This document shows positions 11,665 through 63,717 of a stretch of 64,000 bases of DNA, piece after piece (position 1 is the stretch's first letter; each line of letters begins with the position of its first letter). The notes beneath the pieces were generated by a model. The model searched no databases, was not told the DNA's origin, and saw only the letters and a program-made list of their open reading frames with translations. The position numbers and the translations under genes were made by a program. This DNA is from a virus. The stretch spans positions 192,001 to 256,000 of IMG/VR virus record IMGVR_UViG_3300029374_000001; one strand, 5' to 3'.

Positions 11665-11704
11665 TAACAATTTCTTATTAACAAGTTTCTAGTATCGTAG
11701 ACTT

Positions 11705-18095: not shown

Positions 18096-18119
18096 ACGTG
18101 AGTCGATATCGACTCACGT
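18096..18119. terminator. Perfect 24-bp palindrome acgtgagtcgat|atcgactcacgt between convergent genes (bidirectional terminator candidate)
   Basis: Exact inverted repeat with an A-run on the + side (a T-run on the minus strand). It overlaps the last two codons and stop of the 18114..19916 gene. Confidence 0.45.
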
Positions 18120-19916
18120 AGTACTTATTGTGACATATTTGCTTAGGTCATCTAATTGTAATACTACACCATAAGATGATAAGAACTTTCTTAGATTTTC
18201 TACTCGAACTTCTTCTGGAGTAGATTCTTCATCGAATAGTGTAACCGCATCTACCAATTTACCAGCACTCTTTAATCCAGTTGCATAATTACCACCACTG
18301 AATCCAATATCTGCTAAAGACTTCTCTTTGATCTTCTGTGTTGCTTCATCTTTAGAGATATAGGTAACTGCTGAATTAGTAAACGTTGATGTATGTGGAT
18401 TAGAAGTCAATGACCGAACTCCTAATGTAGGTTTATTATAATCTTCTTGTAATTTGATCGGGCATTCTATTGAATAAGGTTGATAGAATGTATTGAATGT
18501 CGTATTTCCACCATATCTTCTCTTAACTGCTTTGAACCCCAAATATTTAATTTTCTTCTCTTGATCCATCCAGAATGGTACTAAGAATATTGAATAATCT
18601 AAGTTTTCATTAATCAGTCCAGACTCACCAATATAATAACTGTCAATGCTGGACATAACCTTATCATATTCTCCCGTATCTCTCTTAGGAATAATATCCT
18701 TAGACCCTTCTCTATTCAATTGTGATGCAGTAATGAATGAGAGTTGATAATCAATTGCAATTGCTCTAAATTCATTACTGATAACCCCTAATTTTAATCT
18801 TTCGTCATCTTCTCTAATTGAGGGCATAATACGTTTCATATAGTCTTGAATGACTGCAATTGTTTCATATCCCTCATCGGCAAATTGATCGATCTTATCT
18901 CTGATATACTGTGTAGTAACAGAATATACAGACTTATATATATATACAAACTTAATTCCATCTGGATCATTGAAAATGGAATTGTTCCACATATCTAAGA
19001 TCTGTTCTGCTGTATATCGTTGATCTCTAATATCAATATTATACCCAGCCATATTTAACAACAATTGCATATCTTCTTGCAATCTGTTTTCCATACTGAA
19101 GTATAACAATAAAGGTTTCTTAGTTTTATCTCTACAGATATAACCTTTATTATGCTTTAAGATATTGATAGCGATTTCTTTAAGAGTTGTCGATTTACCT
19201 TCCCCAGGTAATGCGAAGAAACAATATTCTCGAGATTGTTCAAAGCCTCCTCTCAATAATTCATTCAGCATAGTAATGCCCGTTTTTAATACATGAGAGG
19301 GTTCTCGGATTTCTTTGATACATTCTAATAGCTTAATATTTCGAACTTCATCATTCAATCCGATTTCGTTTTCTTCTTCGACTACTTTATGCTGAATTAA
19401 AGCCTTATGCGTTTCTGAGATTTCATCTCTTAATGCGTCAATATTTTGATCCATATTTTGTGTATTGGAAATCATAATATTGATGGCTAAGTCTTTCATT
19501 TTCTCAGCATGGTCGAATATATATAAATTATCCGCATACTTAGGGATAACTGTACTTTCAATATAATTAACGTCGTTGCTATTCAATTCTCTGAAAGAAT
19601 TGAAATCAATATCGGGATACTTATTTCCAGAAGCTCCCAATACTTCTTCTAAAACTAATTGTTTATTATTGATTCTGTGGTTAATCTTAGTATTAACGAT
19701 ATCTCTGCAAAGCAATAATCTTTCTTTGCTTGCAGGATCCGATTCATATTCTGTTTCATCTATATTCTCTACAATATTTCGTAGAGCAACTAAAGCGGAT
19801 GGTCTAATATGTTCATTTTCACTCAACGCATAAGTACAAAACCCATCTAACGTTGATAAGGATAATTTCAGAACTGTTTTACCATCCTTTTTGAATAGTT
19901 TCTTTTTCTCCTTCAA
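18114..19916 (-). CDS. DnaB-family (RecA-fold) replicative helicase
   Basis: Walker A 'LPGEGKSTT'. Motif H4 'SFITASQLNREG' (the DnaB 'SQLNR' signature). 600 aa. Apparent TTG start with GGGAGAGGA about 10 nt upstream. Confidence 0.6.
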   Translation of the reverse strand: MKEKKKLFKKDGKTVLKLSLSTLDGFCTYALSENEHIRPSALVALRNIVENIDETEYESDPASKERLLLCRDIVNTKINHRINNKQLVLEEVLGASGNKYPDIDFNSFRELNSNDVNYIESTVIPKYADNLYIFDHAEKMKDLAINIMISNTQNMDQNIDALRDEISETHKALIQHKVVEEENEIGLNDEVRNIKLLECIKEIREPSHVLKTGITMLNELLRGGFEQSREYCFFALPGEGKSTTLKEIAINILKHNKGYICRDKTKKPLLLYFSMENRLQEDMQLLLNMAGYNIDIRDQRYTAEQILDMWNNSIFNDPDGIKFVYIYKSVYSVTTQYIRDKIDQFADEGYETIAVIQDYMKRIMPSIREDDERLKLGVISNEFRAIAIDYQLSFITASQLNREGSKDIIPKRDTGEYDKVMSSIDSYYIGESGLINENLDYSIFLVPFWMDQEKKIKYLGFKAVKRRYGGNTTFNTFYQPYSIECPIKLQEDYNKPTLGVRSLTSNPHTSTFTNSAVTYISKDEATQKIKEKSLADIGFSGGNYATGLKSAGKLVDAVTLFDEESTPEEVRVENLRKFLSSYGVVLQLDDLSKYVTISTT

Positions 19917-34442: not shown

Positions 34443-36509
34443 ATGGCAAATGATAACTTATATTATGATAATGGCAATAAACTGGATCAATTATTGACTG
34501 AGAGTAATCTGAAAGACCATAATAATGATTCAGACGCACATAAATCTTTATTTGCCCAATATACAAAGAATAATCCGGTAGGCATTCATGGAGCTATGCA
34601 TAAATTAGGTGTTAACTTTAAGCCTACGGATGAATCTACATTGGGCTTTGCTAAGTTGGGTAATTTCTGTTGCACATATACAACTCATAACTGTTTTACC
34701 AATCAGCCGTCTCAGTTTGGACAATTGCTTAGTTATCCGACAGACGTAGATCCTGCTAAGAGTAATGATATCCGAGTAACCCAGATATGGTTTGATGGAT
34801 ATAATGGAGATGTCTTTACACGTACTGGAACTAAGAATAATCCAATTAAAGATTTAGTGTTCAGTAGATTCTATCTAGTTACAGATGAATTCAATCGATC
34901 TGGTACAGAATTTCCAATGGCTGGATTGATTCCTGGTATGTTGTATTATAGAACTGACGAACAGAAGCTGTATATATTACAGAAGATGCCGGCCGTATGG
35001 AAAGAAGTCATTGATACATCTTTGACCTCTGGTGTAGCATCTTCTTTATCTCATGCTTGGTGGAAATTAGATAATACCAATGACGATAAGTCTGTTTATA
35101 GATTTAAGAAGAATGAAGATTTAAATACATATACAACTCCTGGTTGTTATGCATCCATTGGTTCTGCATATTCTGCTACTTTGAAACATTGCCCCTATAC
35201 AGCTGGTAACTTTAGATTGGTCGTACAGGAAAATGTTAAAGGTTGGGGTATGCAATTCTTATATGCCGGCAACCAGAATGAATTATACACCAGAGGATTT
35301 TCTAAATCTCCAGATGGTACTACATATGTATTTACCAACTGGGATAAACAGATGAAATACTCTGATACAATTTCTCATGCTGTTATAGCAGATGCTGATA
35401 AATATGGTAAGCAGATTGATAAAACATATGTAAAGCTAATTGGTGGTGTAATGGAAGGTGCATTGGATGTCAGAGATCGTTTAGGATTATATGATTCCGA
35501 AATGACCTTTGGTAATCCTCCGGCAGTAAGTACTTTCAATAATTTATTCTTCTATGATAGAAATATGAATCCGATGGAAGTTATATCTTCTCGATACGAC
35601 CCAGATGGTTCTCATTATATATGCTTTGGGTCGTATAAGTCTAAAGACGATAATACATTGAATTTACTCTCTCTTGGTTGGAGTGCCTCTGGTACTCCCC
35701 AAGCATTGCTGAAATCTGATATAATATTTAATGGCAATATTAATTGTGATAGAGATATTACGGCTCAGACATTCCATGGAACGATTGATAAAGCGGAAAA
35801 GATTGAAACAACAGCCCCTGTAAATTCTGCCGTTGATTTAATTAGAGCGGGAATGGCTGGTACTGATGCATTCAGAATTAGAATTGGTGATTCTGGTAGT
35901 GATACTGGATGGGCAGAAATAGCTACATCAGATGATGGTAATGAGCCAATTTACGTTCGCCAATATACAAAAGCGACCGCAGCTCCCAATGGATCATTCT
36001 CTACTGTAAAACGCTCTGCCACACTCTTGGATGCTAATGGGGATACTGTATTCCCTGGTGTACTGACTGCACAGAAATGCGTCAATGCTATCTATAATGA
36101 CTATGCAGAATTCTTTGAAAGAGGAGAAGATACAGAAGCAGGAGATATTATTGCGTTAGATTTAACTTCTGATGAAGAAAAATATATTAAGGCAACTAAA
36201 GATTCTTCTGTTGTAGTTGGTGTACACTCTGATGAGTTTGCTTATGTTATTGGTGGTATGACTCCAGATGATACAAGAGATATTGTATCCTTTAATATGG
36301 AGAAGTATATTCCAGTTGCATTAATGGGTCGTGTTCATGTTAAAGTTGCCGGAGAAGTTCATAAGGGAGATAAGATCATTCCTTCCGATTTGGCTGGTGT
36401 CGGCAAAATCGCAAAGCCAGGCGATGATATAACCCATTATGTAGGAATTTGCTTAGAAGATAACAAAGATACAGAAATTAGAAAAGTTAGAATGCTTGTT
36501 AGGAGATAA
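34443..36509 (+). CDS. Tail fibre/spike protein (688 aa)
   Basis: GAGGTGA SD. C-terminal ~120 aa 'GDIIALD..VVGVHSDEF..GRVHVKVAGEVHKGDKI' resembles the conserved C-terminal beta-rich domain seen in many fibre/spike proteins. That similarity is from memory and unverified. Confidence 0.55.
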   Translation: MANDNLYYDNGNKLDQLLTESNLKDHNNDSDAHKSLFAQYTKNNPVGIHGAMHKLGVNFKPTDESTLGFAKLGNFCCTYTTHNCFTNQPSQFGQLLSYPTDVDPAKSNDIRVTQIWFDGYNGDVFTRTGTKNNPIKDLVFSRFYLVTDEFNRSGTEFPMAGLIPGMLYYRTDEQKLYILQKMPAVWKEVIDTSLTSGVASSLSHAWWKLDNTNDDKSVYRFKKNEDLNTYTTPGCYASIGSAYSATLKHCPYTAGNFRLVVQENVKGWGMQFLYAGNQNELYTRGFSKSPDGTTYVFTNWDKQMKYSDTISHAVIADADKYGKQIDKTYVKLIGGVMEGALDVRDRLGLYDSEMTFGNPPAVSTFNNLFFYDRNMNPMEVISSRYDPDGSHYICFGSYKSKDDNTLNLLSLGWSASGTPQALLKSDIIFNGNINCDRDITAQTFHGTIDKAEKIETTAPVNSAVDLIRAGMAGTDAFRIRIGDSGSDTGWAEIATSDDGNEPIYVRQYTKATAAPNGSFSTVKRSATLLDANGDTVFPGVLTAQKCVNAIYNDYAEFFERGEDTEAGDIIALDLTSDEEKYIKATKDSSVVVGVHSDEFAYVIGGMTPDDTRDIVSFNMEKYIPVALMGRVHVKVAGEVHKGDKIIPSDLAGVGKIAKPGDDITHYVGICLEDNKDTEIRKVRMLVRR

Positions 36510-36514
36510 TATAA

Positions 36515-37627
36515 ATGGGTAAGTTTTTAAAAAGACAAACCAAAACCATTTTTATTATGCTTGGGAATGGATGTAACTTATCCTGTATATATTGCTTACA
36601 GCATCCACTGGTTCATAAGCCACTGTCTAATAAGATCAATCCAGATATTTATGAGTTTATCAAAGAATGTAACGAAGAGAACGGGAAAGATCATCCCGTT
36701 CATCTTCAATTCTTTGGTGGAGAACCATTGGTATATTATCCTAATATAGAAGAAATCGTAGAAGCGACTAAAGATATAGGATGTACATATTCTGTTATTA
36801 CTAATGGGAAATTGATGAACGATCATATGGTTGAATTTTTTAATAAGAATAACTTTTGGGTAACTATCTCTTGGGATGGGCCTAATGTTATGAAAACCAG
36901 AGGATTTGATGCATTTGATTCGTCCTCCCCATTAAGACGTAGACTATTGCGTTTAGACCATCTATCTATTTCTGCGGTTATGTCATCTAAAGCATATCCA
37001 AAAGAAATTTTAGAAGGTATGCAAGAGATCTCCAACCAATATTATAAACTCAAAGGATATCAAGTAGGAATCAATATTGATCAGATCTTTGATACAGGAA
37101 TAACAAACAAAGAAATTCTGGATGTAGACTATCAAAGAGTCAGAGATGAAATAGAAGAGATGGGAAAAGAATTCTTATTAGATACAATCAACTCCAAATA
37201 TTCCAGAGAATCCTATACAAAGACAATGTTTATTCAAGATCTCTATAACCATATCAATCAATTCTACGGTAAACAAAATGGTGTATGGAATAAATATTAC
37301 TGCAATTGTGGTAATGGATATGCTATATTGAATATGGATTTAGAAGGAAATCTGTATACTTGTCATAATACTTCTACTAAGGTTGGGACAATATATACTC
37401 CCTATTTCCAATATCTGAATGAGGTGTTGAAAACAGATTATACAGACCATATGAGATCTACTTGTAAAGATTGTGTTGCTTTGGCATTCTGTAATGGTGG
37501 ATGTAAGTTAGTTTCTGAGCAAGCCAGAGAAGAAACATATTGCAAATTAAAAAAAGCTGTATTTGAGCCTATGTTGAATTTAATACAAGAATATGGGAAA
37601 ATGGTAGGTGAGTCAAAAAATGCCTAA
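36515..37627 (+). CDS. Radical SAM enzyme with C-terminal SPASM domain (peptide-maturase type)
   Basis: 'GCNLSCIYC' (Cx3Cx2C). 'FFGGEPL'. C-terminal 'CNCGNG..C..CKDCVALAFCNGGC' (Cx2Cx5Cx3C SPASM signature). AGGAGA SD. Confidence 0.8.
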   Translation: MGKFLKRQTKTIFIMLGNGCNLSCIYCLQHPLVHKPLSNKINPDIYEFIKECNEENGKDHPVHLQFFGGEPLVYYPNIEEIVEATKDIGCTYSVITNGKLMNDHMVEFFNKNNFWVTISWDGPNVMKTRGFDAFDSSSPLRRRLLRLDHLSISAVMSSKAYPKEILEGMQEISNQYYKLKGYQVGINIDQIFDTGITNKEILDVDYQRVRDEIEEMGKEFLLDTINSKYSRESYTKTMFIQDLYNHINQFYGKQNGVWNKYYCNCGNGYAILNMDLEGNLYTCHNTSTKVGTIYTPYFQYLNEVLKTDYTDHMRSTCKDCVALAFCNGGCKLVSEQAREETYCKLKKAVFEPMLNLIQEYGKMVGESKNA

Positions 37628-37901
37628 AAATGGAAATATACCTCAAACAGTATTCTCTAATGGAAATCAAGGAGATATTGTTAAGAAAGCATCTATACAG
37701 GAAATACGGAATGCATTAGATGCTTTGAACAATACATATGCTGCCAATGTAGATAATTGTGGAAATTGTACTTTTTGTCAAACCTGCCAGACTCAATCTT
37801 GTCAAGGATGCCAAGTGTGCCAATCTTGCCAGACAGTACATTGGATAGAGCAATGCCCATCTAAAGATTGTAATTGTGTAGATGACGCTGGTTCGGGTTA
37901 A
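37620..37901 (+). CDS. Precursor-like peptide A: leader + (CQx)n cysteine triplet-repeat core
   Basis: Core 'CGNCTFCQTCQTQSCQGCQVCQSCQT...QCPSKDCNCVDDAGSG'. Leader helix 'KASIQEIRNALDALNNTYAAN'. ATG 37620 with GGTAGGTGAG 7 nt upstream (the track's GTG is at 37608). Overlaps the rSAM gene's stop. Confidence 0.6.
   Translation: MPKNGNIPQTVFSNGNQGDIVKKASIQEIRNALDALNNTYAANVDNCGNCTFCQTCQTQSCQGCQVCQSCQTVHWIEQCPSKDCNCVDDAGSG
37757..37836 (+). repeat. Coding (TGY-CAR-NNN)n cysteine-glutamine triplet repeat, peptide A
   Basis: Seven to eight consecutive Cys-Gln-x triplets with synonymous codon variation (tgt/tgc, caa/cag). The repeat is therefore maintained at the protein level. Confidence 0.6.
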
Positions 37902-37912
37902 GAGGTGATATT

Positions 37913-38269
37913 ATGGGATATACAGATCCAGATTTAACTGGTAAACCAATAAAACGACAGCATTTAGAAGAACTCAAAACGGCTATAACTACATTAAGTT
38001 CATCTAAAAAAGTTTCTGTACCGATTAATATCTCTTCTTCTGATAAAGTAACCTCTGCAAATGTAAAAGCATTGCAGAATGCAATTCATAGTTTACAAAC
38101 CAAGTTCTCCAATAATTGCTGTCAAGCCAATTGCTGTCAGACTTGCCAGGTTTGTCAAGGATGTCAAACCTGCCAGGGTTGTCAGACATGTCAAAGTTGC
38201 CAAACCAATAAAGAATGTTATAATCCAAACTGCGATTGCAACTGTGGAGATGATGGAGGAGGAGGTTAA
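37913..38269 (+). CDS. Precursor-like peptide B: leader + (CQx)n cysteine triplet-repeat core
   Basis: Core 'CCQANCCQTCQVCQGCQTCQGCQTCQSCQT..ECYNPNCDCNCGDDGGGG'. Leader carries two copies of an L-x-x-L/I-x-x-A-I-x-x-L helix motif. AAGAGGTGA 4 nt upstream. Confidence 0.6.
   Translation: MGYTDPDLTGKPIKRQHLEELKTAITTLSSSKKVSVPINISSSDKVTSANVKALQNAIHSLQTKFSNNCCQANCCQTCQVCQGCQTCQGCQTCQSCQTNKECYNPNCDCNCGDDGGGG
38117..38205 (+). repeat. Coding (TGY-CAR-NNN)n cysteine-glutamine triplet repeat, peptide B
   Basis: Ten Cys-Gln-x triplets with variable third residue (A/T/V/G/S). Confidence 0.6.
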
Positions 38270-38649
38270 TGATGATTATTTCTGGACAAATTTTAACAAT
38301 AGATGGACCGAAAGATCTGAAAGATGTTACCAAGTTGGATTGGGTTCTCTCGGGTACTATTCCTACCAGAATTATAGATATACAGAAAACAACTGTTAAG
38401 ACATATAAAACGTTCTCTACTGTTCCCACTCTATGGGTTGGTAAAGATACAAAAATGAAGACCATACATGGGTTGATGAATATGAAAAATAAAGATGAAG
38501 CTGATTTAACCAGACCATATACAACAGATATTCATGTAGCGGCTTCTATTAAAAAATCTGATGAAGAATTAACTGGGTATATCTTTAAATTAGCCAATGG
38601 AAGTCATACCATCGTTGTAGAGAACTGTGAGGTTGAATGCGATGCTTAA
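38269..38649 (+). CDS. Hypothetical protein in rSAM cassette
   Basis: ATGATG directly after GGAGGAGGAGGTTAA of the previous gene. Confidence 0.5.
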   Translation: MMIISGQILTIDGPKDLKDVTKLDWVLSGTIPTRIIDIQKTTVKTYKTFSTVPTLWVGKDTKMKTIHGLMNMKNKDEADLTRPYTTDIHVAASIKKSDEELTGYIFKLANGSHTIVVENCEVECDA

Positions 38650-39478
38650 GATATTATTTAATAAAGATAGCACAGATACTCATTTGAAATATAATATGGA
38701 TTTATTAGGAACCTTTCTTTCTCTACGCTGCGAAAATACGGATCCTGCTTATTTAGCTTCTGGTAGAGATGGAGTAGAAGTATTGGATTCTTATACTTCC
38801 TATGTATTTGTAAACAATCCAAATTCTATTGTAAAGAACTTTAGAGTTCCTACTAAGTCCGCTTATAAGTTTTTAAATATGAATCGTCTTGGCGTAGCTA
38901 TTCGAATGGATTATTCTGATATGGCACAATTATTCTCTAATGGAGATACTATGTGCCAGATAGATACCGGAATGATTTCCAGTACAGAGAAAGATATTAT
39001 CATTAGATTCTTTGTAGGAACAAAAGCTAACTTTAATATCCAAACAGATATGGATGTAGAGTATGGTGAGTTCAGTTCTGCAGATTTGCCTTCCCAAAGT
39101 CATCCAAGAGCGACACTTTGGGATAGCTATTCTTTGAAAATAGACGATATTGAGTATAAGGCCGATAGGTATGGGAATGGTGTACAAGGAACGTTCCAAA
39201 CGCCCATTTCTTATAAAAACGTACCGATTGAATTAACTATTCAAAAGTATAAAGGAAACTTCTCTGCAACTAAATTAACCAGAGATATAGATTGTGAAGA
39301 TGTATTAATAGATTGCTCTTGTGGTGTATTGGATACTAAGAGAGTTTCTTTAAATAAAGGAATAGCTAAAGTCCATTTATATCCATTTGACTACTCTGGT
39401 AAAGTAAAAATTAAGTTGGGCAGAAAATGGTATGAAGTATGGAATGAATATAATTTAATCTTAGAGAAGAAGCCATGA
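38642..39478 (+). CDS. Hypothetical protein in rSAM cassette
   Basis: Start set at ATG 38642 (GTGAGG 9 nt upstream) rather than the track's GTG 38627. Confidence 0.5.
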   Translation: MLKILFNKDSTDTHLKYNMDLLGTFLSLRCENTDPAYLASGRDGVEVLDSYTSYVFVNNPNSIVKNFRVPTKSAYKFLNMNRLGVAIRMDYSDMAQLFSNGDTMCQIDTGMISSTEKDIIIRFFVGTKANFNIQTDMDVEYGEFSSADLPSQSHPRATLWDSYSLKIDDIEYKADRYGNGVQGTFQTPISYKNVPIELTIQKYKGNFSATKLTRDIDCEDVLIDCSCGVLDTKRVSLNKGIAKVHLYPFDYSGKVKIKLGRKWYEVWNEYNLILEKKP

Positions 39479-40449
39479 AATCTATCAGCATATATTTAGG
39501 CAGTAAGTGTAACATGAATTGTTCTTATTGCCATAGAATAGAATCTGAAGAAGAAAACCATATTTCAGATGAGCTCATTGCTCATCTGAAGTCTATGGGC
39601 AAAATTCATATTAGTTTTTTTGGTGGAGAACCTACTCTATATATGGATGATATCAAAAGAGTAGTAGAAGCTATGCCAGAAAATTCATATAGAATTACAA
39701 CCAATGGAATTCTCTTTGATAAATATAGAGAATTCTTTTTAAAATATAATTTCAAAGTGGCATTTTCTTATGATGGAAATAATGCATTACGTTCTAAAGA
39801 TATTTTAGATCATCCAATAGAATATCCATTTGTTAATATCTCTTGTACTCTCTTTCATGGAAATACAGATTTAGAATATATTATGCATCAATTTAATGAG
39901 AAAGAGAAAGTCATATCAGTCAGACTTTCTTTATATCCTCATATCATGCATATGACTTCAGAGTCTAATAAACCATATGCATTAACCAGAGAAGATTATA
40001 CTTCTTTGATTGAACAAATCAAAACCTATGTATCCAAATATGTTATAGATTTTGAGAAATATGGTATTATGAATTATAGAATTAATGGACTATTCATATT
40101 GGTTAATTCTTTATTGAATAATAACTATGAATATGGTGAAACCTATTGTGTTCATCGTAATATAAAGAAAATAGATACATCTGGAAAAATGTATACTTGT
40201 TTATATATGAGAGATGATCAACTATTTCCAGATACATGGCAACAAGATTTAGCCAATGTCATTGATAAGACCTTTACAGATTGTAAAACATGTTCTTATT
40301 ATAGATATTGTGGTTCTGCTTGTGTTAAATCTAAAGAACATGAGTTAGAATGTTATTTCTATAAGAGACTCATTATTTGGGGATTACAATTTAGAAACCA
40401 TCATAAAGAAGCTTTTCAAGAATTATCTAAGATCATTAGGAGGAAATAA
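39475..40449 (+). CDS. Second radical SAM/SPASM enzyme
   Basis: 'KCNMNCSYC' (Cx3Cx2C). 'FFGGEPTL'. C-terminal 'C..CKTCSYYRYCGSAC' (Cx2Cx5Cx3C). ATGA overlap with the upstream gene. Confidence 0.8.
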   Translation: MKSISIYLGSKCNMNCSYCHRIESEEENHISDELIAHLKSMGKIHISFFGGEPTLYMDDIKRVVEAMPENSYRITTNGILFDKYREFFLKYNFKVAFSYDGNNALRSKDILDHPIEYPFVNISCTLFHGNTDLEYIMHQFNEKEKVISVRLSLYPHIMHMTSESNKPYALTREDYTSLIEQIKTYVSKYVIDFEKYGIMNYRINGLFILVNSLLNNNYEYGETYCVHRNIKKIDTSGKMYTCLYMRDDQLFPDTWQQDLANVIDKTFTDCKTCSYYRYCGSACVKSKEHELECYFYKRLIIWGLQFRNHHKEAFQELSKIIRRK

Positions 40450-41132
40450 TGCATTTATTTGTATTTGATGATGCTGTCAGAAAAACAGATCTGAAAGAGA
40501 ATATCAAACTGAATATATATGATGATCATATTTTTCATTTCTTCCATAATGATCACAAGTTAATTATAGATACAGATTTATTAAGAGATGGATCCAGTAC
40601 AATAGTTCTATATAGTCAAGCAACAGACAATACTTATGTATTATATGACTTTAGAGAATTATTAGAGATTTTAGATATGACTCCAAAAGAAATGCTGACC
40701 AATCTCAATCAAAAAGGATTCATGCAAATTGATAAATGTAATAACAATACATTTATTAAAGTTTTCTTGCTTAGAGGAGAAACAGAGCTATCTAGCGATA
40801 CTCATAACTTTGCTTCCTATAAGCATTATACCATAGATTATATTCATCCGTTGGATTGGAAATATAGCTGGACAATTCATGATGCAAAAGCTGTGTTGTC
40901 TGAAGACTATAAAAAAGTAACCATATCTTTCAATATGAAACGTTCTGATTTCTGGATAAAAGATTTATATATCTCTCATGCTGGTCAGACAGAAAAAATA
41001 AAAGAGGGATACAATGAAGTTACTTTTACTTATATAGAAACAGAAGATGTTTATTTTGGAAATCCTAATTGTCATTATAAAGGAAGATGTTTGAATCTGA
41101 CCAGATTACTCTATGAAACCAACCTAAAGTGA
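40449..41132 (+). CDS. Hypothetical protein (last gene of cassette)
   Basis: AGGAGG 5 nt upstream. ATG overlaps the rSAM stop. Confidence 0.5.
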   Translation: MHLFVFDDAVRKTDLKENIKLNIYDDHIFHFFHNDHKLIIDTDLLRDGSSTIVLYSQATDNTYVLYDFRELLEILDMTPKEMLTNLNQKGFMQIDKCNNNTFIKVFLLRGETELSSDTHNFASYKHYTIDYIHPLDWKYSWTIHDAKAVLSEDYKKVTISFNMKRSDFWIKDLYISHAGQTEKIKEGYNEVTFTYIETEDVYFGNPNCHYKGRCLNLTRLLYETNLK

Positions 41133-41214
41133 GATATTCCTATAAAGGAATATCTCTTTTATTCCAGTCAACATTTCAGTAAATTCATGAATTTATATAG
41201 AGAGGGTGAATAAC

Positions 41215-44198: not shown

Positions 44199-44226
44199 TA
44201 TCAGAGACTCATATGAGTCTCTGATA
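44199..44226. terminator. Perfect 28-bp palindrome tatcagagactcat|atgagtctctgata between convergent genes
   Basis: Exact inverted repeat. An A-run on the + side upstream gives a T-run on the minus strand. Member of the CTCATATGAG-centred palindrome family. Confidence 0.5.
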
Positions 44227-44267: not shown

Positions 44268-44882
44268 CTATAATTCGGGGAGTAAATGTGAGCCAGCATA
44301 TCCAATCTTCATCAACATATACTTTAATAAATCATCGTTAATAATATCAAGAATCGGATAACTATTATAGTTGTCTTTATCTATTATATTTAGAGGTCTT
44401 ATCTTTTTATCAGAAGATTTATCACGATTATCGTAATAGTAATGGAGTGTTATAATGATTGTTAGCTTCTGTACACAACTAATAAGTTTTTGTGTATATT
44501 CAATAATGCAATATTTTATTTCTTTTTTATTAATATCCCACACAGAATCCGACTCATCGGTATATAAATCATCTATGTATCCATCAATAGCTGGATAAAC
44601 ATCGAAAAGTGGAAAATTTCCTAATTTATACATAGTATTATACAATATAAAGATTATAATACTTTTATCCAAAGAATTCATATCCAATTTACATTTATGC
44701 ACTAAGTACGAATAAGTATTTATAATGATACGGTTATCATTATCTATATCCGAATCATATTGTGATGATTTATTGGTAATTAGAATACATAAAAGTATAT
44801 GTGCTATATTCATCAGATATTTATCTTCATTATTTAATAATTCTGGACGTTTAAATAGAAATGTATATTTCTCAATATTCAT
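44268..44882 (-). CDS. Hypothetical protein
   Basis: Start moved to MNIEKY (AAGGA 8 nt upstream). The track's ATG 44891 abuts the SD. Confidence 0.5.
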   Translation of the reverse strand: MNIEKYTFLFKRPELLNNEDKYLMNIAHILLCILITNKSSQYDSDIDNDNRIIINTYSYLVHKCKLDMNSLDKSIIIFILYNTMYKLGNFPLFDVYPAIDGYIDDLYTDESDSVWDINKKEIKYCIIEYTQKLISCVQKLTIIITLHYYYDNRDKSSDKKIRPLNIIDKDNYNSYPILDIINDDLLKYMLMKIGYAGSHLLPEL

Positions 44883-44914
44883 ATTATCCATCCTTTTGAA
44901 ACATAATTAAAAAT

Positions 44915-44944
44915 ATATCAGAGACTCATATGAGTCTCTGATAT
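44915..44944 (-). terminator. Perfect 30-bp palindrome atatcagagactcat|atgagtctctgatat (second copy)
   Basis: Same arms as 44199..44226. Lies 3' of 44978..45301. Confidence 0.45.
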
Positions 44945-45396: not shown

Positions 45397-46143
45397 TCAT
45401 ACGTCTGGGCTCGTATCGGATGATTTATTTTTCATATTTTTAATACGTAAGAGAGCCTCACGATGCCTTTTACAACAGTTACATTTTGGAGTTGCGTCAA
45501 TTCCATATATATCTACATTACAGTTATTCCTAGCTTCACAGTATGTTACTTTATCATATAAATCATTCTTCTGAAGATATAAGATGATGTCTTCTTTAGA
45601 AGTATTTTCTAACGGAAATTCTATATCAGTATCTTTTATTCCATATATCTTAAAAATATTAGAATAGATATCTAATAGCTCTTTTCTGTATCGTATTGCA
45701 TCATCACCATCGATATATCCCATGAATATCTGTATTTTGCTAGGTGGTATTATGAGCAGTGTACTGGCTATAGATAATATCCACATTACTGGTAAAACAA
45801 AATAACTACCATAAGTGAGCTCTTGATCGGTATATGTCTCATCTAGTTCGCTATTCAACTTAATAAAATATATACGGAATCCTTTATTTTTGTATATATC
45901 CATAATATCCGAAATGCTATCACACTCTCGAGTAAGCGTATTAGGTTGTCTAAAGGATGCCATATGATGATATACTAAAAATATTTCGCATTCATCTTTA
46001 AGATGATTCTTTTCGATCTCTTTACAAAGAATATCAAGGATGGTTGTGCTATCACAACCACCCGAGAAAGATATAACAAACGATCGTTTTCCTTGCTTCA
46101 ATGTATTAGCAATTCTTTTTTGACCTAAAAACACAGTAGACAT
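45397..46143 (-). CDS. PP-loop ATP pyrophosphatase, QueC-like (7-cyano-7-deazaguanine synthase-like)
   Basis: 'ISFSGGCDSTTIL' SGGxDS PP-loop. C-terminal Cys cluster 'C..C...CNCC' resembling the QueC Zn site. TAAGGAG 5 nt upstream. Confidence 0.5.
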   Translation of the reverse strand: MSTVFLGQKRIANTLKQGKRSFVISFSGGCDSTTILDILCKEIEKNHLKDECEIFLVYHHMASFRQPNTLTRECDSISDIMDIYKNKGFRIYFIKLNSELDETYTDQELTYGSYFVLPVMWILSIASTLLIIPPSKIQIFMGYIDGDDAIRYRKELLDIYSNIFKIYGIKDTDIEFPLENTSKEDIILYLQKNDLYDKVTYCEARNNCNVDIYGIDATPKCNCCKRHREALLRIKNMKNKSSDTSPDV

Positions 46144-50517: not shown

Positions 50518-52101
50518 TTACTTGTTCTGTTCAGTAAACATAAGATCAATCTGTGGATACATTGGATCTAAGATCTTAATTAATGCTTTATATGGATCTA
50601 GTTCTTCTGTTAATATCATTTCTACAATTGTTTTAGAAAAGCCAGATACAAGCACCAAACCATTGGAATTACGTGTCATTGGGATGGTACCAGTACGAGA
50701 ATTGACGTTCCAGAAGATAAGCCGTGGTATAGTATAGCCATGTGCTTTATAACGCTCAGAAATCATATCAAACAATGCTTGATCTGTAGAACCATCCATA
50801 GCCATATCAAATTCCATATCTGATATAATAATCAGATTCTTTGGAAGATCTTCTTGAGATAGATTATTATTAATTGCAGTATTCAATACTAAATTAAATA
50901 CAGATTCAATATCCGTATTGGAGCAATCATCATAGTGAGCCAGAGCAATCAGTTTATCATATAAAGTATGATACATATTCAGATCTACAATATACGGTCT
51001 CATGCTAAATGAAATAAACTTATTCTTAAACGCTTTGGATTTAATATGCTCTGCGCAATACAATGTAATAGAATCTGCTACATTTTGTGCGGTCAATGAA
51101 TCATTAATAGCGCATCTCATACTACCAGATCCATCTCGAATAACCAATGTGTCTTCTAATAAAGATCCAGGAGGAGTCTGATGCTTCCAAAGTTCTTCTA
51201 ATGTATCATCTTTTTCAGCAAATCCGCCATTCCAGTATTTACGTACAATATCATACAAGAAGAGACTATTGGCATTGATCTTGGCTTTACCTTGTTTTAA
51301 ATCTTCTAAATATTGTCTTCTTCTATTTTCATCATGACGTAAGAAAGCACCATTGTATATCAAATTAGCTTTAGATGGTACATGTTCATAATTGATATTG
51401 TACCATTGGTTATCAGACATTTTAACTTCCAATACATCGAGATACTTTCTTAATTGAGACAAGAGTTTTCTATATTGTTTATCTGTATACTTACAGAAGC
51501 TTGGTAAAGCTTTCTTCAATTCTCTTGCTCTTTTACGAGTATACACAGAAGATGTATTCATAGAAGGAATCCATTTAGCCAACAAACTAATTGGTTTATT
51601 TTCCTTCATATTTTTAATATCTATTTTTAACTGTGAATTAATGGTTAATTTGCATAAAGTTTTGACTTTACTATTGGATGTGGTAAAATAAAGATCAATT
51701 ATATCATCCCACCTACCAATATCTTGAATAATCATAGATAAGAGTATATTCATGGTTGCATCCGGATCTATATCGGACAGATGTGCTAATAAACAACGGA
51801 AAGCATCTCTTTCTCCTAGTCCATGTTTGATATCTCTTAAATATAATAACCATTTGATCGTTCTAATTTTATCTTCATGATAAGATAAATCAAATTGTAT
51901 ACACATTGATTTGAGCGTATTATAATCGATTTGATCATTATTGTAATTTTTAATTTGCTTTCTAAATTCAGAGAATGCCCTTCTCAACATAGGTACAGAG
52001 AAATTTAAATCAACTAATGCATGACCAGTACTTTCATAACCAATAGCACCATTCTCTGTTTTTGTGAGCACATTGGCTCTCATCATGTTCATAAAATCCA
52101 T
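50518..52101 (-). CDS. DUF2828-like protein with C-terminal vWA (MIDAS) domain; TROVE/Ro60-like architecture
   Basis: 'LVIRDGSGSMR' D-x-S-x-S MIDAS motif plus 'LIIISDMEFD'. N-terminal 'TENGAIGYESTGHALVDLNF' resembles DUF2828 N-termini (from memory). AGGAGG 8 nt upstream. Confidence 0.5.
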   Translation of the reverse strand: MDFMNMMRANVLTKTENGAIGYESTGHALVDLNFSVPMLRRAFSEFRKQIKNYNNDQIDYNTLKSMCIQFDLSYHEDKIRTIKWLLYLRDIKHGLGERDAFRCLLAHLSDIDPDATMNILLSMIIQDIGRWDDIIDLYFTTSNSKVKTLCKLTINSQLKIDIKNMKENKPISLLAKWIPSMNTSSVYTRKRARELKKALPSFCKYTDKQYRKLLSQLRKYLDVLEVKMSDNQWYNINYEHVPSKANLIYNGAFLRHDENRRRQYLEDLKQGKAKINANSLFLYDIVRKYWNGGFAEKDDTLEELWKHQTPPGSLLEDTLVIRDGSGSMRCAINDSLTAQNVADSITLYCAEHIKSKAFKNKFISFSMRPYIVDLNMYHTLYDKLIALAHYDDCSNTDIESVFNLVLNTAINNNLSQEDLPKNLIIISDMEFDMAMDGSTDQALFDMISERYKAHGYTIPRLIFWNVNSRTGTIPMTRNSNGLVLVSGFSKTIVEMILTEELDPYKALIKILDPMYPQIDLMFTEQNK

Positions 52102-56461: not shown

Positions 56462-58282
56462 TTAGTTATCAAAATCATATGTATTAAATGCCGGATCTGG
56501 CAAGAGATACTGGTTGGTCTTAAACATCAGTCCAATAATAGTAACAATAGCATCCAGAATAACAATATCGGATTGAATAGAAGATAATACTTTTCTATCA
56601 TATTCTCCTGTTCTTAAATTCAATGGGCAGTTATATTTCAAAGAATCATTAACGATTTCATTGAGTCTTGATTCAGATACTGTATTATCCTTGTTGTAAA
56701 TCAATTGGAACAGGGACTTATAGGCATCCAGTATTAAGCGAATAGCGTCTTTTGTAAGGTCTTCCGCATAGGGGTACTGACTATAGTCAATAGCGTGCTC
56801 TTTACCCATAATTTCCACCATTAACTGGCAGCATGCTTTCAACGCTTCGAAGTTTGCTCCATAGCCTACACCATATTCTGCAGCAGATCTACAATTCAAT
56901 ACAGCATCTTCTACCAAGTCTTTCTTAGCATCTCTATCTGTATAAGAAATACCACCAATCAAGTAGTCAACCATATTACATTCTAATGTCTGAATACGTC
57001 TCTTCAGTTTATAGATTTCGGTAACGTCTTTTTTAGTTTCTTCATATTTCTGTAATTCAGACTTTAATGATTTAACCAAGTTTTCATACATAGAAGACTT
57101 AGATCCATCTTTGTTATACATCATAGCTGGATTGATAATCTTTGTCATCTTAGCATCGGAGATAACCTGTTCGGCACTACCAGCAAAAGAGTGTACATTC
57201 TTCGGAGTAGCAGCAATACCCTTTTCAATATCAATCTTTTGAATATTGGGGTCGATATATTTCTTAATTGTCTTAGCTCCAGACAATTTAGCCAAATCAT
57301 ACAGATAATCTAACCGAGTAATATTAGTAACCATAAGCAGTTTAGGTCTCTGTTCCGGCGGATAGTTTCCAATAGTCTGCAATACCTGGTCTAATTCGGA
57401 ACGTACATCTTCACTATACTTAGGAGCTAATATAACAGTAGGAACTTCTCCAGGCATACTAAGAGCGTCTTTCTTACCATCTCTCATTGCTTCATTGCGT
57501 GTAGCCAATGGCATAATGATATTTTCTGTAACAATTGTTCCCAGCAGAGCCATCATTTCTGGCGTATCAATAGGATCTTCAAAGATATAAATCTTAGGAT
57601 CTCTAATTACACAAGTAGAGTCTTTTGCATTGTTAATAAAGTTTGCATTGAAGTATCCTACATCAAAAGTAAATCCATCATAAGATTTCAGAATATTATC
57701 TGTGGTATTGGAAATGCCTACATCGATATAGACAGAGTTACCATAGTCTTCATAGATCTTCTTAATATTCTGGGCAATCTCTTCATCACCATCTGTAGAT
57801 GTATAAGCAATATTATAGATGTCTTCTAAGGTAACTTTACGTCCATCTTTTTCTATGATTTCATAGATTCTTTCCGCAACGTTTTCTACTTTCTTCAGAA
57901 TTTCTTTTTCAGAAACATTGTATTCTTTACAATAATTATTCAATTTATGGAACAGTTTATAAGACAGAATAACAGAAGAGGTAGTACCATCTCCTACCGT
58001 CTTTACCGTATTTCTGGTTACATTTCTCAGATCATCCACAATAGACATTTCGATGGGTTTATTAAACTTAACGGCCCCTAAGATCTTATGCCCATCTTTG
58101 GTATAATCTGTACGTCCACTATCTTTCTTATCTACTACAGATCTCATTTCTGTGGTAGAGCCATCCGGTCCATAAGAGTTCTGTAATACATTAGCAATTG
58201 TTGCTAATGTCTCATCTTGCACTTCTCTCAAAATGCTCTTGGAAACCACATTGTTTATTGCCTTTGCTCTAATTGTGCCCAT
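56462..58282 (-). CDS. Chaperonin Cpn60/TCP-1 family (group-II-like), phage-encoded
   Basis: N-terminal equatorial-domain motifs 'GPDGSTTEMRS', 'TKDGHKIL' and 'VGDGTTSSVIL' (the GDGTT(S/T) ATP-binding loop). 606 aa. GGAGGA 4 nt upstream. Confidence 0.6.
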   Translation of the reverse strand: MGTIRAKAINNVVSKSILREVQDETLATIANVLQNSYGPDGSTTEMRSVVDKKDSGRTDYTKDGHKILGAVKFNKPIEMSIVDDLRNVTRNTVKTVGDGTTSSVILSYKLFHKLNNYCKEYNVSEKEILKKVENVAERIYEIIEKDGRKVTLEDIYNIAYTSTDGDEEIAQNIKKIYEDYGNSVYIDVGISNTTDNILKSYDGFTFDVGYFNANFINNAKDSTCVIRDPKIYIFEDPIDTPEMMALLGTIVTENIIMPLATRNEAMRDGKKDALSMPGEVPTVILAPKYSEDVRSELDQVLQTIGNYPPEQRPKLLMVTNITRLDYLYDLAKLSGAKTIKKYIDPNIQKIDIEKGIAATPKNVHSFAGSAEQVISDAKMTKIINPAMMYNKDGSKSSMYENLVKSLKSELQKYEETKKDVTEIYKLKRRIQTLECNMVDYLIGGISYTDRDAKKDLVEDAVLNCRSAAEYGVGYGANFEALKACCQLMVEIMGKEHAIDYSQYPYAEDLTKDAIRLILDAYKSLFQLIYNKDNTVSESRLNEIVNDSLKYNCPLNLRTGEYDRKVLSSIQSDIVILDAIVTIIGLMFKTNQYLLPDPAFNTYDFDN

Positions 58283-61638: not shown

Positions 61639-61665
61639 AATTAAATCTGTAATATGATTCAGCTA

Positions 61666-63717
61666 TTAGGGAATGTTGTTCAGTTTAGCCGGAATCTTGA
61701 TATGACCCTTAGTCGGGCTGCCATCTGCGGCATCAATTACGCCGTTAACTTCAGAGCTGTACTGTTCAGTATTAGCTGTGTTGTCGTTCATAGCGTTGAT
61801 TCCGATGTAATCATTGTCGCTTGCCATAGCTACGTTCTCCCTGAGGCCAGACGGATTCAGGATACGAATACGGCCCTGTACAGGCTGATACTGCAGGAAC
61901 AACCAACGTTCGAAGCAGGTCATAGCCGGGGTCTCGTACTGTACCGTATCACGAATTTCGCTGGAAATATACATCTGATAATCAATAACCTTGTAGGTAA
62001 TACGCATGCTATTTCTAGGAATGAGCAGTACAATCAGGTTATTGTTATTTCTCATCTTCTGAGAGGAGATGAAGTTGTAAACACGATGTTCGCTTGTTAC
62101 AACAGTCCGTTTGAAATCAAGTTCAACCGGTCCGATGTTGGACGGTGTCTGATAAGTGTAGGACTGCGGCGAAATACGACGGATGAGGTCCGGACGTCCG
62201 AATACTGCAACTGTCATATTTTCATCATTGAGAACCTGGAGCATACGGGTTACGTACTGATCAAGGTTATCCATGAACATAACTTTACGCCATTCAACCG
62301 GGTTGTTGTTGTAGTTGAGAGGCGGAGCGAAGTCGAAAGCACCAGAAACTTTAGCTACATCAGGCATTGTGAGGAAGCTATCGTTCAGGTTCTGGAGAAT
62401 GGAGTCATCCTTCCAGTGGAGCAGGCCAAGTCTCATCATGGACATAAGCTTTGTTACCTGGTTTACGTCGTAGAGAGCCTGGATATCTTTAACTTCTTCC
62501 GGAGATACTGTGCAGGTGATGTGCGGAGCTTCCGGAATTTCGTAGAAGTTAGTCATTGCAGACCATTTGAATTTAACGGTCGGGAACTGAGCTGTAGATA
62601 CGTCAACAACTGCATGAATAATAACGCCTTCTACAAAGCCAGCATTACCTGTAACAATAACCGCACCAGTATCAGCATTGATAGCCGGAGCACTCATGAG
62701 CATAATCTTGTTGCCCTGAGAAGCGTTACCCATCAGGTTAATGGTAACTTTTACAGAAGTAGTAGCAGTAGCCGGTACAGAGAGAGCAATTCTCTTGTTG
62801 AGAACGCGATCCATAGCACCATAGCCAGGGTTGAACATACCGTCAACGTCGAATACCAGTTTCTTACCAGCACCAACATCAGCAGTTTCAGCTACTTTGA
62901 ATTTACGATTTGCATCATCATAAATCAGGTCGCCTTCAGCAGCATAACCTGTAACAATGATTCTCTTAACCATGGTCTTCATGGAGAGAGTTGTGTTTCT
63001 GAGGATACGATCCGGAACCTGATCAGCAGTGAATGCGTCATGAACGAGGTTTCCGTTCAGAGCGTCACCACGAGCACCGTTACCACCGAGGGAAGCAGCA
63101 GAACCGATAATTTCTTTCGGAGCTACATCGCCAGCCAGTGCACCTGCAGCAGTAGCAGCAACAAAGAAATCAACAGACGGAATAGAAGCATCGACTGCCG
63201 GTTTAATCTTGTTCTGTTCTGCAAAGATGTCGAATTCGTTACCATCAACATCTACCATGGTACGAGTTTCCATGGTCAGTGTGAACTTCGGAGAACGTGC
63301 AACGTCTTTCGGCATAACCTGATCAAATACAGCGTTCATCAGGATGTTTTTATGCATCGGGAGAGCCATACCGATTACAGGGTTATAAGCACCGAGTGTA
63401 GTGGATTCCTGCTGGATCTGTGCTACGTCGTTTTCGAACAATGCTTCCATGTTGTCAACATGTTCAGCTACAGCATCAGCGCTCTGGAATCTCGGATCAT
63501 TCTGATCGAAGGAGTCTTCTACGAAGGACTTCTTCATTTCGTTTTTAGCAAGATCGCTTGTGAAGAATTCGCCAGGATTTCTGAAGATATCATAGCCAGC
63601 TTCCTGATGAACACCTCTTGCAACGTCAAGGAACTGTTCTGCAACAGCATGCATCGGATCGGATGCATATCCGCGGAGATCGAGTTTCTTGTTATCAATT
63701 GAGCTAAGAATAGCCAT
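61666..63717 (-). CDS. Major virion structural protein, probable major capsid protein (683 aa)
   Basis: Strong AAGGAGGAAAG SD, then 5 nt, then ATG. Markedly GC-rich third positions (ctg/aac/gtt/ggc), unlike the rest of the genome, consistent with a very highly expressed gene. Flanked by a strong terminator. Size is in the range of jumbo-phage MCPs. The fully overlapping + strand ORF 61654..63702 is C/H/R/S-rich and judged an antisense artefact. No fold-level evidence is available. Confidence 0.5.
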   Translation of the reverse strand: MAILSSIDNKKLDLRGYASDPMHAVAEQFLDVARGVHQEAGYDIFRNPGEFFTSDLAKNEMKKSFVEDSFDQNDPRFQSADAVAEHVDNMEALFENDVAQIQQESTTLGAYNPVIGMALPMHKNILMNAVFDQVMPKDVARSPKFTLTMETRTMVDVDGNEFDIFAEQNKIKPAVDASIPSVDFFVAATAAGALAGDVAPKEIIGSAASLGGNGARGDALNGNLVHDAFTADQVPDRILRNTTLSMKTMVKRIIVTGYAAEGDLIYDDANRKFKVAETADVGAGKKLVFDVDGMFNPGYGAMDRVLNKRIALSVPATATTSVKVTINLMGNASQGNKIMLMSAPAINADTGAVIVTGNAGFVEGVIIHAVVDVSTAQFPTVKFKWSAMTNFYEIPEAPHITCTVSPEEVKDIQALYDVNQVTKLMSMMRLGLLHWKDDSILQNLNDSFLTMPDVAKVSGAFDFAPPLNYNNNPVEWRKVMFMDNLDQYVTRMLQVLNDENMTVAVFGRPDLIRRISPQSYTYQTPSNIGPVELDFKRTVVTSEHRVYNFISSQKMRNNNNLIVLLIPRNSMRITYKVIDYQMYISSEIRDTVQYETPAMTCFERWLFLQYQPVQGRIRILNPSGLRENVAMASDNDYIGINAMNDNTANTEQYSSEVNGVIDAADGSPTKGHIKIPAKLNNIP

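Follow-up and report, generated by a model that had tools for sequence, protein, structure and literature searches.

A cysteine-glutamine repeat module in a phage tail-fibre operon and its accompanying radical SAM/SPASM enzymes

Freyrasin carries six Cys-X3-Asp units. Its cysteines are joined by thioether bonds to Asp, those of NxxcA to Asn, and QhpD joins Cys to both Asp and Glu (PMC8326336). QhpD, a radical S-adenosylmethionine (SAM) enzyme with a SPASM domain, places several such Cys-Asp and Cys-Glu bridges in a protein of about 100 residues that is not cleaved and is kept as a subunit of a complex, and in CteB the use of seven cysteines for two auxiliary clusters leaves one iron free, which binds a substrate cysteine (PMC8326336). 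Here we describe a locus in a 64,000-nucleotide stretch of viral DNA (positions 192,001 to 256,000 of the IMG/VR record IMGVR_UViG_3300029374_000001; this whole stretch is hereafter the window, and coordinates are given in its numbering unless a locus is named) that encodes two small proteins rich in the dipeptide Cys-Gln, peptides A and B, together with two enzymes of the radical SAM/SPASM class, rSAM1 and rSAM2. On balance, we consider it probable that A and B are a structural fibre module cross-linked by thioether chemistry of the PapB/CteB/QhpD kind, and not a secreted peptide of the RiPP class (made on the ribosome and then modified after translation).

The Cys-Gln peptides and their family

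Peptide A (37620-37901, plus strand) has 93 residues when read from ATG 37620; the computed open reading frame (ORF) opens at GTG 37608, and an AGGTGAG sequence resembling a Shine-Dalgarno (SD) site sits 7 nt 5' of ATG 37620. Its N-terminal helical part ends in ..ALNNTYAANVDNCGNC and is followed by Cys-Gln (CQ) repeats and a CNC..DD end. The first Cys codon is at 37758, and the repeats, CQTCQT at 37776-37793 and CQGCQVCQSCQT at 37800-37835, have the form (CQx)2+(CQx)4. In peptide B (37913-38269, plus strand, 118 residues) a two-helix N-terminal domain closes in the heptad-like motif NVKALQNAIHSLQTKFS, after which NNCCQANCCQ, with the first Cys codon of the peptide at 38117, leads into an uninterrupted (CQx)8 run (CQTCQVCQGCQTCQGCQTCQSCQT, 38135-38206) and then into the end CDCNCGDDGGGG. 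An AlphaFold2 model of peptide B has helices at residues 15-31 and 48-66 with predicted local distance difference test (pLDDT) values of 74-84, and values below 50 at residues 68-118. The hydrophobic residues V51, L54, I58, L61 and F65 of the helix that precedes the Cys region are spaced, as read from the sequence, in a 3-4 heptad pattern, which would fit a short coiled coil. The terminal Gly codons of peptide B (GGAGGAGGAGGT; 38255-38272) double as a strong SD-like run before the overlapping start, TAATG, of the next gene, which encodes a Hint-like protein.

A sequence-only reading of this DNA had reported (CQx)n repeats in two paralogous peptides, with a mixture of synonymous codons indicating selection on the peptide and not on the DNA, and these points stand. 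In a six-frame scan of the window, (CQx)n runs with n of at least 2 were confined to peptides A and B, which share 32-37% identity. Since Cys and Gln make up 1.5% and 3.0% of the residues in the window's long ORFs, the (CQx)8 run of peptide B, with an expectation of about 1e-22 per window, is not a product of chance. Over both peptides, Cys is encoded by TGT 14 times and by TGC 12 times, and Gln by CAA 14 times and by CAG 9 times, and the repeat copies are only 62-80% identical at the DNA level; a DNA-repeat artefact is ruled out by this codon mixture and this low identity. A relative that is 81% identical (P0002) has every x position changed with respect to the window and retains all C and all Q.

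Neither peptide matched an NCBIfam family at E<=1, the curated Cys-rich precursor models (SCIFF, CcpA, Cys-every-fifth and others) included, or a Pfam family above noise. In the PHROG scan, peptide A gave one weak 'tail fiber' match (E 0.0045), and phrog_15341 was matched by 7 of 68 family members. A literature search that included sequence strings from the peptides found no description of the system.

Protein-database searches brought out a family in which Cys-Gln repeats are kept and radical SAM genes adjoin. The word-indexed search with peptide B gave 66 homologues of 99-146 residues, and a profile search of 1.84 billion representatives gave 164 clusters (at 50% identity) with E<=1e-3 and 52 with E<=1e-10. 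The putative substrate proteins have 93-134 residues and 11-22 Cys, and up to 23 CQ units are found in the family. In alignments, the N-terminal helical part closes in LQxAIxxLExxFSxNCCQxNCCQ in the B type and in ELRxAIxxLxxYxxNVDNCG in the A type. The C-terminal region consists almost wholly of Cys-Gln dipeptides with 1-4 small residues between them (the Cys-rich part is 23% Cys and 16% Gln), and the CQ region ends in a C-(N/D)-C-(N/D)-C motif, after which DD(G/S) is often found. In P0045, P0137 and the A peptide of locus L017, -Ser-His replaces the -GDDGG end; an -SH end occurs in 16 family members.

Over 205 relatives, the spacing between successive Cys is 3 in 1095 cases, 5 in 395, 2 in 319, 4 in 300, 1 in 259 and 6 in 114. 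The strict three-residue Cys period proposed from the window sequence therefore holds inside the window and does not hold across the family, and the idea of a collagen-like periodicity has to be given up: spacings of 2, 4, 5 and 6 are frequent, the period is interrupted in the family, and the periodic residue is Cys, not the Gly of a collagen-like triple helix. The residue that follows Cys is much more constant: Gln takes this place at 870 of about 1085 C?xC sites and at 309 of about 390 C?xxxC sites, and overall in about 80% of repeat units. Where Gln is replaced, Glu is the most frequent substitute (44 at the C?xC sites), and Gln or Glu together account for about 85% of units; the middle residue of CxC is Asn or Asp in 243 of about 310 sites. 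What the family conserves is the dipeptide Cys-Gln and not a three-residue period.

Linked enzymes, fusions and the tail-fibre operon

A degenerate DNA pattern for NCCQxNCCQxCQ was found in 47 IMG/VR stretches, in which the proteins of the gene cassette around A and B were then placed by tblastn. In all 43 evaluable loci the rSAM1 gene (complete in 38, cut by the contig end in 5) was placed upstream of the peptide-B signature, at a distance of about 1.6 kb, an A-type ORF is found upstream of B in 41 of these 43, and the genes for the Hint-like protein, p280 and rSAM2 follow downstream in 28 of 30 evaluable loci. Many of the loci counted are near-duplicates; their identities to the queries span about 50% to 100%, and therefore several lineages are represented. 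With one genome per species, the same pattern matched 12 genomes, 11 of which belong to Negativicutes, strict anaerobes; the match in a Saprospiraceae genome was due to chance and lay in a non-coding frame. No module without an adjoining radical SAM gene was found among the loci with enough context. Since at least one such enzyme always accompanies it, the CQ module is almost certainly the substrate of the SPASM radical SAM enzyme.

The two enzymes that the sequence-only reading had placed next to the peptides are both genuine radical SAM/SPASM enzymes. One of them, rSAM1 (36515-37627, plus strand, 370 residues), matches Pfam Radical_SAM and the NCBIfam SPASM domain TIGR04085 (37.2 bits, cut-off 27), and the other, rSAM2 (39475-40449, plus strand, 324 residues), is its paralogue (26% identity, E 2e-18). 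Orthologue alignments of both show an invariant CX3CX2C and exactly seven invariant SPASM Cys each, the SPASM pattern being CX9-15GX4C ... CX2CX5CX3C ... C with seven Cys, and by these signatures rSAM1 and rSAM2 are assigned, at the superfamily level, to the radical SAM/SPASM maturases. The window's rSAM1 has an extra Cys two residues before the first SPASM Cys, which is absent from the Acidaminococcus-type orthologue. By analogy with CteB, rSAM1 and rSAM2 may bind a substrate Cys at an open auxiliary-cluster iron.

The best families of rSAM1 are PapB (1.7e-27), a Nif11-type maturase, QhpD (third, 1.2e-24), anSME and the SCIFF maturase, and its best PDB match is CteB (5wgg, 5.8e-11), followed by the radical SAM protein 8vpo and then by anSME. 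The closest characterised enzymes among these, PapB, QhpD, CteB and anSME, either form Cys thioethers or oxidise Cys. With the PapB model NF047865 (cut-off 340 bits), rSAM1 scores 96.5 and rSAM2 65.6 bits; the QhpD model gave 86.8 bits against a cut-off of 453, with no dehydrogenase genes (qhpA/qhpB) in the operon, and the anSME model 65.8 bits against 349. Because every family score is far below the curated cut-off, the reaction cannot be read from homology. The cluster motif begins at residue 20 in rSAM1 and at residue 12 in rSAM2, and the alignment of rSAM1 to the 330-position PapB profile opens at profile position 3; there appears to be no room for an N-terminal RiPP recognition element (RRE) in either enzyme. 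Some PapB-like enzymes likewise lack an RRE.

In relatives, the module forms the C-terminus of proteins of 230-530 residues, fused to domains of 200-430 residues of the tail-fibre or lectin kind. The N-terminus of P0137 (322 residues, locus L073) matches 'hinge connector of long tail fiber' (8.5e-13) and a B-type module stands at its end, the same locus encodes a 530-residue double-LamG protein with an A-type module at its end, and the N-terminus of P0099 is F5/8-type-C-like or 'tail protein'. In P0113, the module is directly followed by a Peptidase_S74 intramolecular chaperone domain (53.6 bits, cut-off 22), and more than 20 tail-fibre PHROGs are matched. Peptidase-S74 domains belong specifically to tail fibres and spikes of the trimeric kind; that of P0113 is evidence from context and not of membership for the window peptides, which end without S74. 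Radical SAM genes adjoin the fused forms of L087 and L088/L089. Several fused forms come from contigs too short for gene context, and viral-contig scans with the fused P0089, P0099 and P0137 gave no useful loci. From these architectures, we conclude that the CQ module probably serves fibre or receptor-binding proteins of phages as a C-terminal building unit, which the window has in the form of two small stand-alone subunits.

The window cassette comprises eight genes in the order fibre protein, rSAM1, A, B, Hint-like protein, p280, rSAM2 and p220, with adjacent genes overlapping or abutting. The genes for peptides A and B lie midway in a tail-fibre operon of the phage and do not form a RiPP cluster of their own. 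The same eight genes in the same order occur in prophages of Megasphaera (L007-L009) and of the Acidaminococcus type (L010-L012), and in those of two further genomes (L015 and L018); in the prophages of Megasphaera, Acidaminococcus and other Negativicutes, the cassette is located between TMP-Dit-Tal-like genes and holin/amidase genes. The first conserved element of the cassette is formed by the last approximately 140 residues (..NAIYNDYAEFFERGEDTEAGDIIALD..VRMLVRR) of the fibre protein (34443-36509, plus strand, 688 residues). This C-terminal domain is kept in all cassette copies (alignment, tblastn), and its weak matches to Peptidase_G2 IMC, to the pre-neck appendage family phrog_4775 and to PDB 3gqh suggest an autochaperone-like domain of the phi29 gp12 type. 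The genes on the 5' side encode very large fibre-like proteins, namely one of 1776 residues (LamG domain, weak CBM_5_12 match) and then those of 1208, 589 and 688 residues.

The protein p280 (38642-39478, plus strand, 278 residues from ATG 38642; the computed ORF opens at GTG 38627) is all-beta, with immunoglobulin (Ig)-like sandwiches, and is the most conserved cassette member. The metagenomic protein P0110 (173 residues) opens with the N-terminal 117 residues of a p280 homologue and continues as a Cys-Gln tail of the A type (..RDIINCGFTNYCQSCQTTTCQ..); it has arisen either by natural recombination within the cassette or as a chimera of the assembly. Another conserved cassette protein, p220 (40449-41132, plus strand, 227 residues), aligns among orthologues and co-occurs with the cassette, and no match to it was found in Pfam, NCBIfam, PHROG or PDB; profiles of p280 and p220 gave no match to PDB sequences. 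Directly 3' of p220, a terminator-like hairpin (41131-41156, plus strand), the sole plus-strand terminator-like site between 28000 and 41156, closes the operon. The 579-residue protein encoded 3' of the operon matches 15 PHROGs, 9 of them annotated as tail fibre. Scans of the eight cassette proteins against Pfam, NCBIfam and PHROG found no leader peptidase or protease, exporter, immunity gene or PqqD-like/RRE domain.

The number of enzymes varies among architectures, from one enzyme for both peptides in one variant to three to five in others. In L017 (488-7748), five radical SAM genes and a ThiF-like gene surround A and B. L073 (545-8563) encodes ThiF, an rSAM1 orthologue and two more radical SAM proteins, one of which (604 residues) has two radical SAM domains; neither locus has a Hint-like gene. 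In the L057 type, the fibre autochaperone, rSAM1, A and B are accompanied by a PP-loop-like protein (310 residues, TGGLDST motif, directly following B, without NCBIfam match), a trans-sulfuration-family pyridoxal phosphate (PLP) enzyme and a GltP/DctA-like symporter. CQ genes adjoin a PLP enzyme (cystathionine synthase/lyase or sulfhydrylase) and a GltP/DctA/SstT-like symporter in two independent architectures (L057:7506-10653 and L087:2647-4982); possibly, these are auxiliary genes of the phage, providing Cys, and also Glx or Ser, to proteins rich in Cys and Gln.

The Hint-like protein of the window (38269-38649, plus strand, 126 residues) has Met at the catalytic Cys1 position. Position 1 is Met in all five split Hint-like orthologues, and the N-terminal nucleophile is thus missing from this form. 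The orthologue profile matches 2lwy, an intein-like domain from bacteria, at E 0.0046 and also matches the gp41-1 intein, and two Hint-like orthologues score 27.2 and 21.7 bits with Pfam Hint_2 (cut-off 28.4), from profile position 8. In seven fused forms (P0078, P0089, P0116, P0117, P0140, P0158 and P0193) the Hint Cys1 comes directly after the CxCxC end; these Hint domains open with Cys-Phe-x-x-(Gly/Asp)-Thr, and the subfamily has its own C-terminal DYxxxNWxG tail. These signals, weak but consistent, suggest that the window protein is a free-standing remnant of the self-cleaving Hint domain that is fused in relatives. Being a separate polypeptide without Cys1, it cannot form the thioester. 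A -1 frameshift joining peptide B to the Hint-like ORF was ruled out, since a slippery heptamer is absent and Cys1 would be missing from the fused product as well. As Hint (by a thioester) and ThiF (by an adenylate) each activate a C-terminal carboxylate, the variant cassettes hint at C-terminal ligation or cyclisation.

A related arrangement is found in Achromobacter phage 2-1 (OQ974181.1; L013:2682-6185) and likewise in phage JWF, in which a 480-residue fibre-like protein ends in ..KPRANCNCDCNCSC and continues directly into a Hint domain (CFPAGTMVLMADG..). This protein, with its CDCNCSC + Hint unit, is 31% identical to P0116 over 182 residues (E 6e-26), and the closest INPHARED relative of rSAM1 (27% over 345 residues, E 1e-22) is encoded two genes downstream. 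The host is an aerobic proteobacterium, and the phages have the enzyme and the CxCxC+Hint unit without CQ repeats. Phages 2-1 and JWF thus carry the association of a Cys-rich fibre end with enzymes of this family beyond the phages of Negativicutes. They are the only screened other phage radical SAM locus sharing it; no Cys-rich neighbours were found at the loci of Ralstonia phage RP31, Campylobacter phage F379 and two human-gut contigs, and so the link is not general to phrog_1802 enzymes. In RP31 (L014:994-6104), the relatives of rSAM1 form a row of three radical SAM genes with a possible fourth, and in F379 (L070) the relative of rSAM1 adjoins QueE-like genes.

Elsewhere in the window, the minus strand carries genes typical of very large phages, namely those of a GyrB-like topoisomerase subunit (9313-11670), a divergent DnaB-like helicase (18114-19916), a DUF2828/DUF7788 protein (50518-52101) and a Cpn60/TCP-1-like chaperonin (56462-58282); nowhere in the 64 kb was a tRNA gene found. 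With these genes, and with near-identical IMG/VR contigs of up to 216-261 kb, the DNA comes from a very large phage. A perfect palindrome of 28 nt, TATCAGAGACTCATATGAGTCTCTGATA, occurs at 44199-44226 and 44915-44944 and brackets a minus-strand ORF of 207 residues (44268-44891); it scored as terminator-like on both strands at 44199-44226 and on the minus strand at 44915-44944. A few kb from the cassette, a PP-loop ATPase-like protein of 248 residues (45397-46143, minus strand) has an SGGCDS motif and weak matches to QueC and ATP_bind_3. Two ORFs of about 682 residues are nearly coextensive on opposite strands (61654-63702, plus; 61666-63717, minus), the minus-strand product being without a Pfam match.

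Proposed maturation and its alternatives

According to the mechanism proposed here, the late tail-fibre operon would give rise to A and B and, along with them, to two radical SAM/SPASM enzymes of their own, rSAM1 as the constant enzyme and rSAM2 as that of this cassette type; the division of labour between them might follow the two substrates or two successive reactions. The enzymes would abstract hydrogen from the side-chain or alpha carbon of a Gln, Asn or Asp adjacent to Cys, and this carbon would then be bonded to the sulfur of a Cys bound at the first auxiliary cluster's open iron, after the manner of CteB, PapB, QhpD and NxxcB. Reaction at every CQ unit would build up a thioether ladder, its bridges lying inside one chain or joining neighbouring chains, and the product would be a stiff fibre segment resisting reduction and proteases. 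Such a bridged segment would suit a virion released into the strictly anaerobic, reducing gut, where disulfides cannot hold; in anaerobic hosts, radical SAM enzymes would be expected to work and disulfides not to persist. The Hint-like protein, probably descended from a cis-acting self-cleaving domain, might act in trans as an assembly chaperone of the C-terminal end, and the Ig-like p280 and p220 might serve as structural partners.

Thioether formation would be the most economical chemistry, because rSAM1 and rSAM2 look like thioether synthases, each Cys has Gln/Glu or Asn/Asp as its partner, and the acceptors known for QhpD, PapB and NxxcB are Asp, Glu and Asn (PMC8326336); the residues paired with Cys in the family would thus be known acceptor types or their amides. 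More tentatively, it is quite possible that the CQ fibre module is the first virion component made by radical chemistry, a multiply thioether-bridged rod, perhaps bridged from chain to chain too, with Gln as a new acceptor, its C-terminus activated by Hint, S74 or ThiF for cleavage or ligation, and RiPP-type enzymology replacing disulfides in phages of strict anaerobes.

Several points weigh against a cross-linked fibre module. The evidence for the presence of A and B in the virion and for their modification is indirect. To our knowledge, Gln has not been reported as a thioether acceptor and PapB needs a carboxylate. A trimeric or cross-linked fibre is argued from the fusions, because AlphaFold2 models no Cys-rich half (pLDDT <50), and the lectin-like domains are N-terminal in the fused forms, the reverse of the usual fibre polarity. 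The cultured and deposited phages of INPHARED gave no match to the locus DNA, to peptides A and B or to p280, and only distant relatives of the radical SAM enzymes. The layout of A and B, with a structured N-terminal domain and a C-terminal core, is like that of long-leader RiPP precursors, and CxxC and CxC spacing of Cys would also be expected of a metal or iron-sulfur (Fe-S) binding protein.

The last of these points bears on the best-surviving alternative, in which the Cys-rich tails of a trimeric fibre hold a column of metal ions or clusters and the radical SAM enzymes have another or a minor role. The CxxC and CxC spacings predominate, the module precedes trimer-specific chaperone domains in relatives, and AlphaFold2 cannot fold the Cys-rich region as an apo monomer. 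There is also an established precedent, the needle of T4 gp37, in which a His-x-His repeat binds iron near the distal end of the trimeric fibre. A metal ladder, however, leaves unexplained the one to five radical SAM genes that stand beside the module in every architecture, and equally the Gln or Glu after Cys in most units and the Asn or Asp in CxC, and the varying spacer length is awkward for a regular metal column. We therefore regard it as unlikely.

A little less likely again is that the fibre context is as described and the chemistry is another: epimerisation to D-residues, formylglycine formation (anSME), C-C or ether cross-links, or modification of the CxCxC end only. The low family scores of the enzymes leave room for this, the Achromobacter phage relative has its enzyme and a CxCxC+Hint unit with no CQ repeats, and variant cassettes add ThiF, PP-loop-like and further radical SAM genes. 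On the other side, the closest characterised enzymes are mostly thioether synthases, the composition of the peptides is almost without aromatic residues for cyclophane-type links, and CxPxR, the anSME substrate motif, is absent from peptides A and B.

Lastly, it is improbable that A and B are precursors with long leaders from which a toxin or signal akin to ranthipeptides or sactipeptides is made, the phage carrying the genes as cargo and lysis freeing the product: a structured N-terminal domain with a Cys-rich C-terminal core beside SPASM maturases, and two paralogous precursors with two maturases that recall two-component sactibiotics such as thuricin CD (PMC12093266), speak for it, but the cassette is without leader peptidase, transporter, immunity gene or RRE, its genes are embedded in and translationally coupled to a tail-fibre operon, which is not the position of cargo genes, the module is fused to tail-fibre and lectin domains and to the S74 fibre chaperone, and p280 is an Ig-like structural protein.

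Comparison with known systems

Should a thioether-bridged fibre module be confirmed, it would be a new phage assembly principle and would account for some of the unexplained phage radical SAM genes (phrog_1802); there is a substantial chance that the system is such a new principle of virion assembly. Covalent isopeptides of the HK97-type capsid are formed autocatalytically, and we know of no radical SAM cross-linking of tail fibres in phage assembly. For RiPP enzymology, the locus would offer a highly repetitive, protein-sized substrate, SPASM enzymes apparently without an RRE and maybe a new acceptor, which would be useful for peptide and protein stapling. In gut microbiology, it would be a widespread receptor-binding module in phages of Megasphaera, Acidaminococcus, Dialister and relatives, and sequenced strains carrying the prophage, such as Megasphaera sueciensis TMW 2.2488, Acidaminococcus fermentans WCA-389-WT-5B and A. 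massiliensis Marseille-P2828, make the system directly testable.

As in the ranthipeptides and SCIFF peptides (PapB/freyrasin, CteB/CteA and NxxcB/NxxcA), a SPASM enzyme adjoins a Cys-rich substrate with repeated donor-acceptor motifs. Unlike in those systems, the substrates here are protein-sized (93-134 residues), CQ is a motif with no known acceptor role, protease and exporter genes are lacking, the genes are set in a tail-fibre operon, and relatives carry the module fused to fibre domains. For the proposed maturation of A and B, the nearest precedent would be QhpD/QhpC of quinohemoprotein amine dehydrogenase, which differs in that here there is no QhpA/QhpB or quinone cofactor context, the substrate sequence is another and the module is a viral structural one.

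Among fibres, the endosialidase and T5 pb1 with their S74 domains and phi29 gp12 are comparable in that the CQ module of P0113 is joined to S74, the cassette fibre has a gp12-like end, and Hint is found at the same terminal position elsewhere, whereas the chaperone-like Hint protein of the window is a separate gene product without the nucleophile; neither a Cys-Gln repeat nor an accompanying radical SAM enzyme is known to us from any S74 or gp12 fibre. The T4 gp37 needle shares a short repeated motif of the ligand type, on which the metal-ladder model is based, and differs in having His in place of Cys-Gln, no radical SAM involvement and no sequence similarity. With Hedgehog/Hint and the bacterial intein-like domains, the fused relatives share the full Hint domain with Cys1, and the 126-residue window protein shares the fold signature, being set apart from them as a separate polypeptide lacking Cys1. 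The enzyme-substrate logic is already known from ranthipeptides and QhpD/QhpC. What is new is the family of substrates with its CQ motif, its structural setting in a phage, and C-terminal devices (Hint, S74 and ThiF) that can take one another's place.

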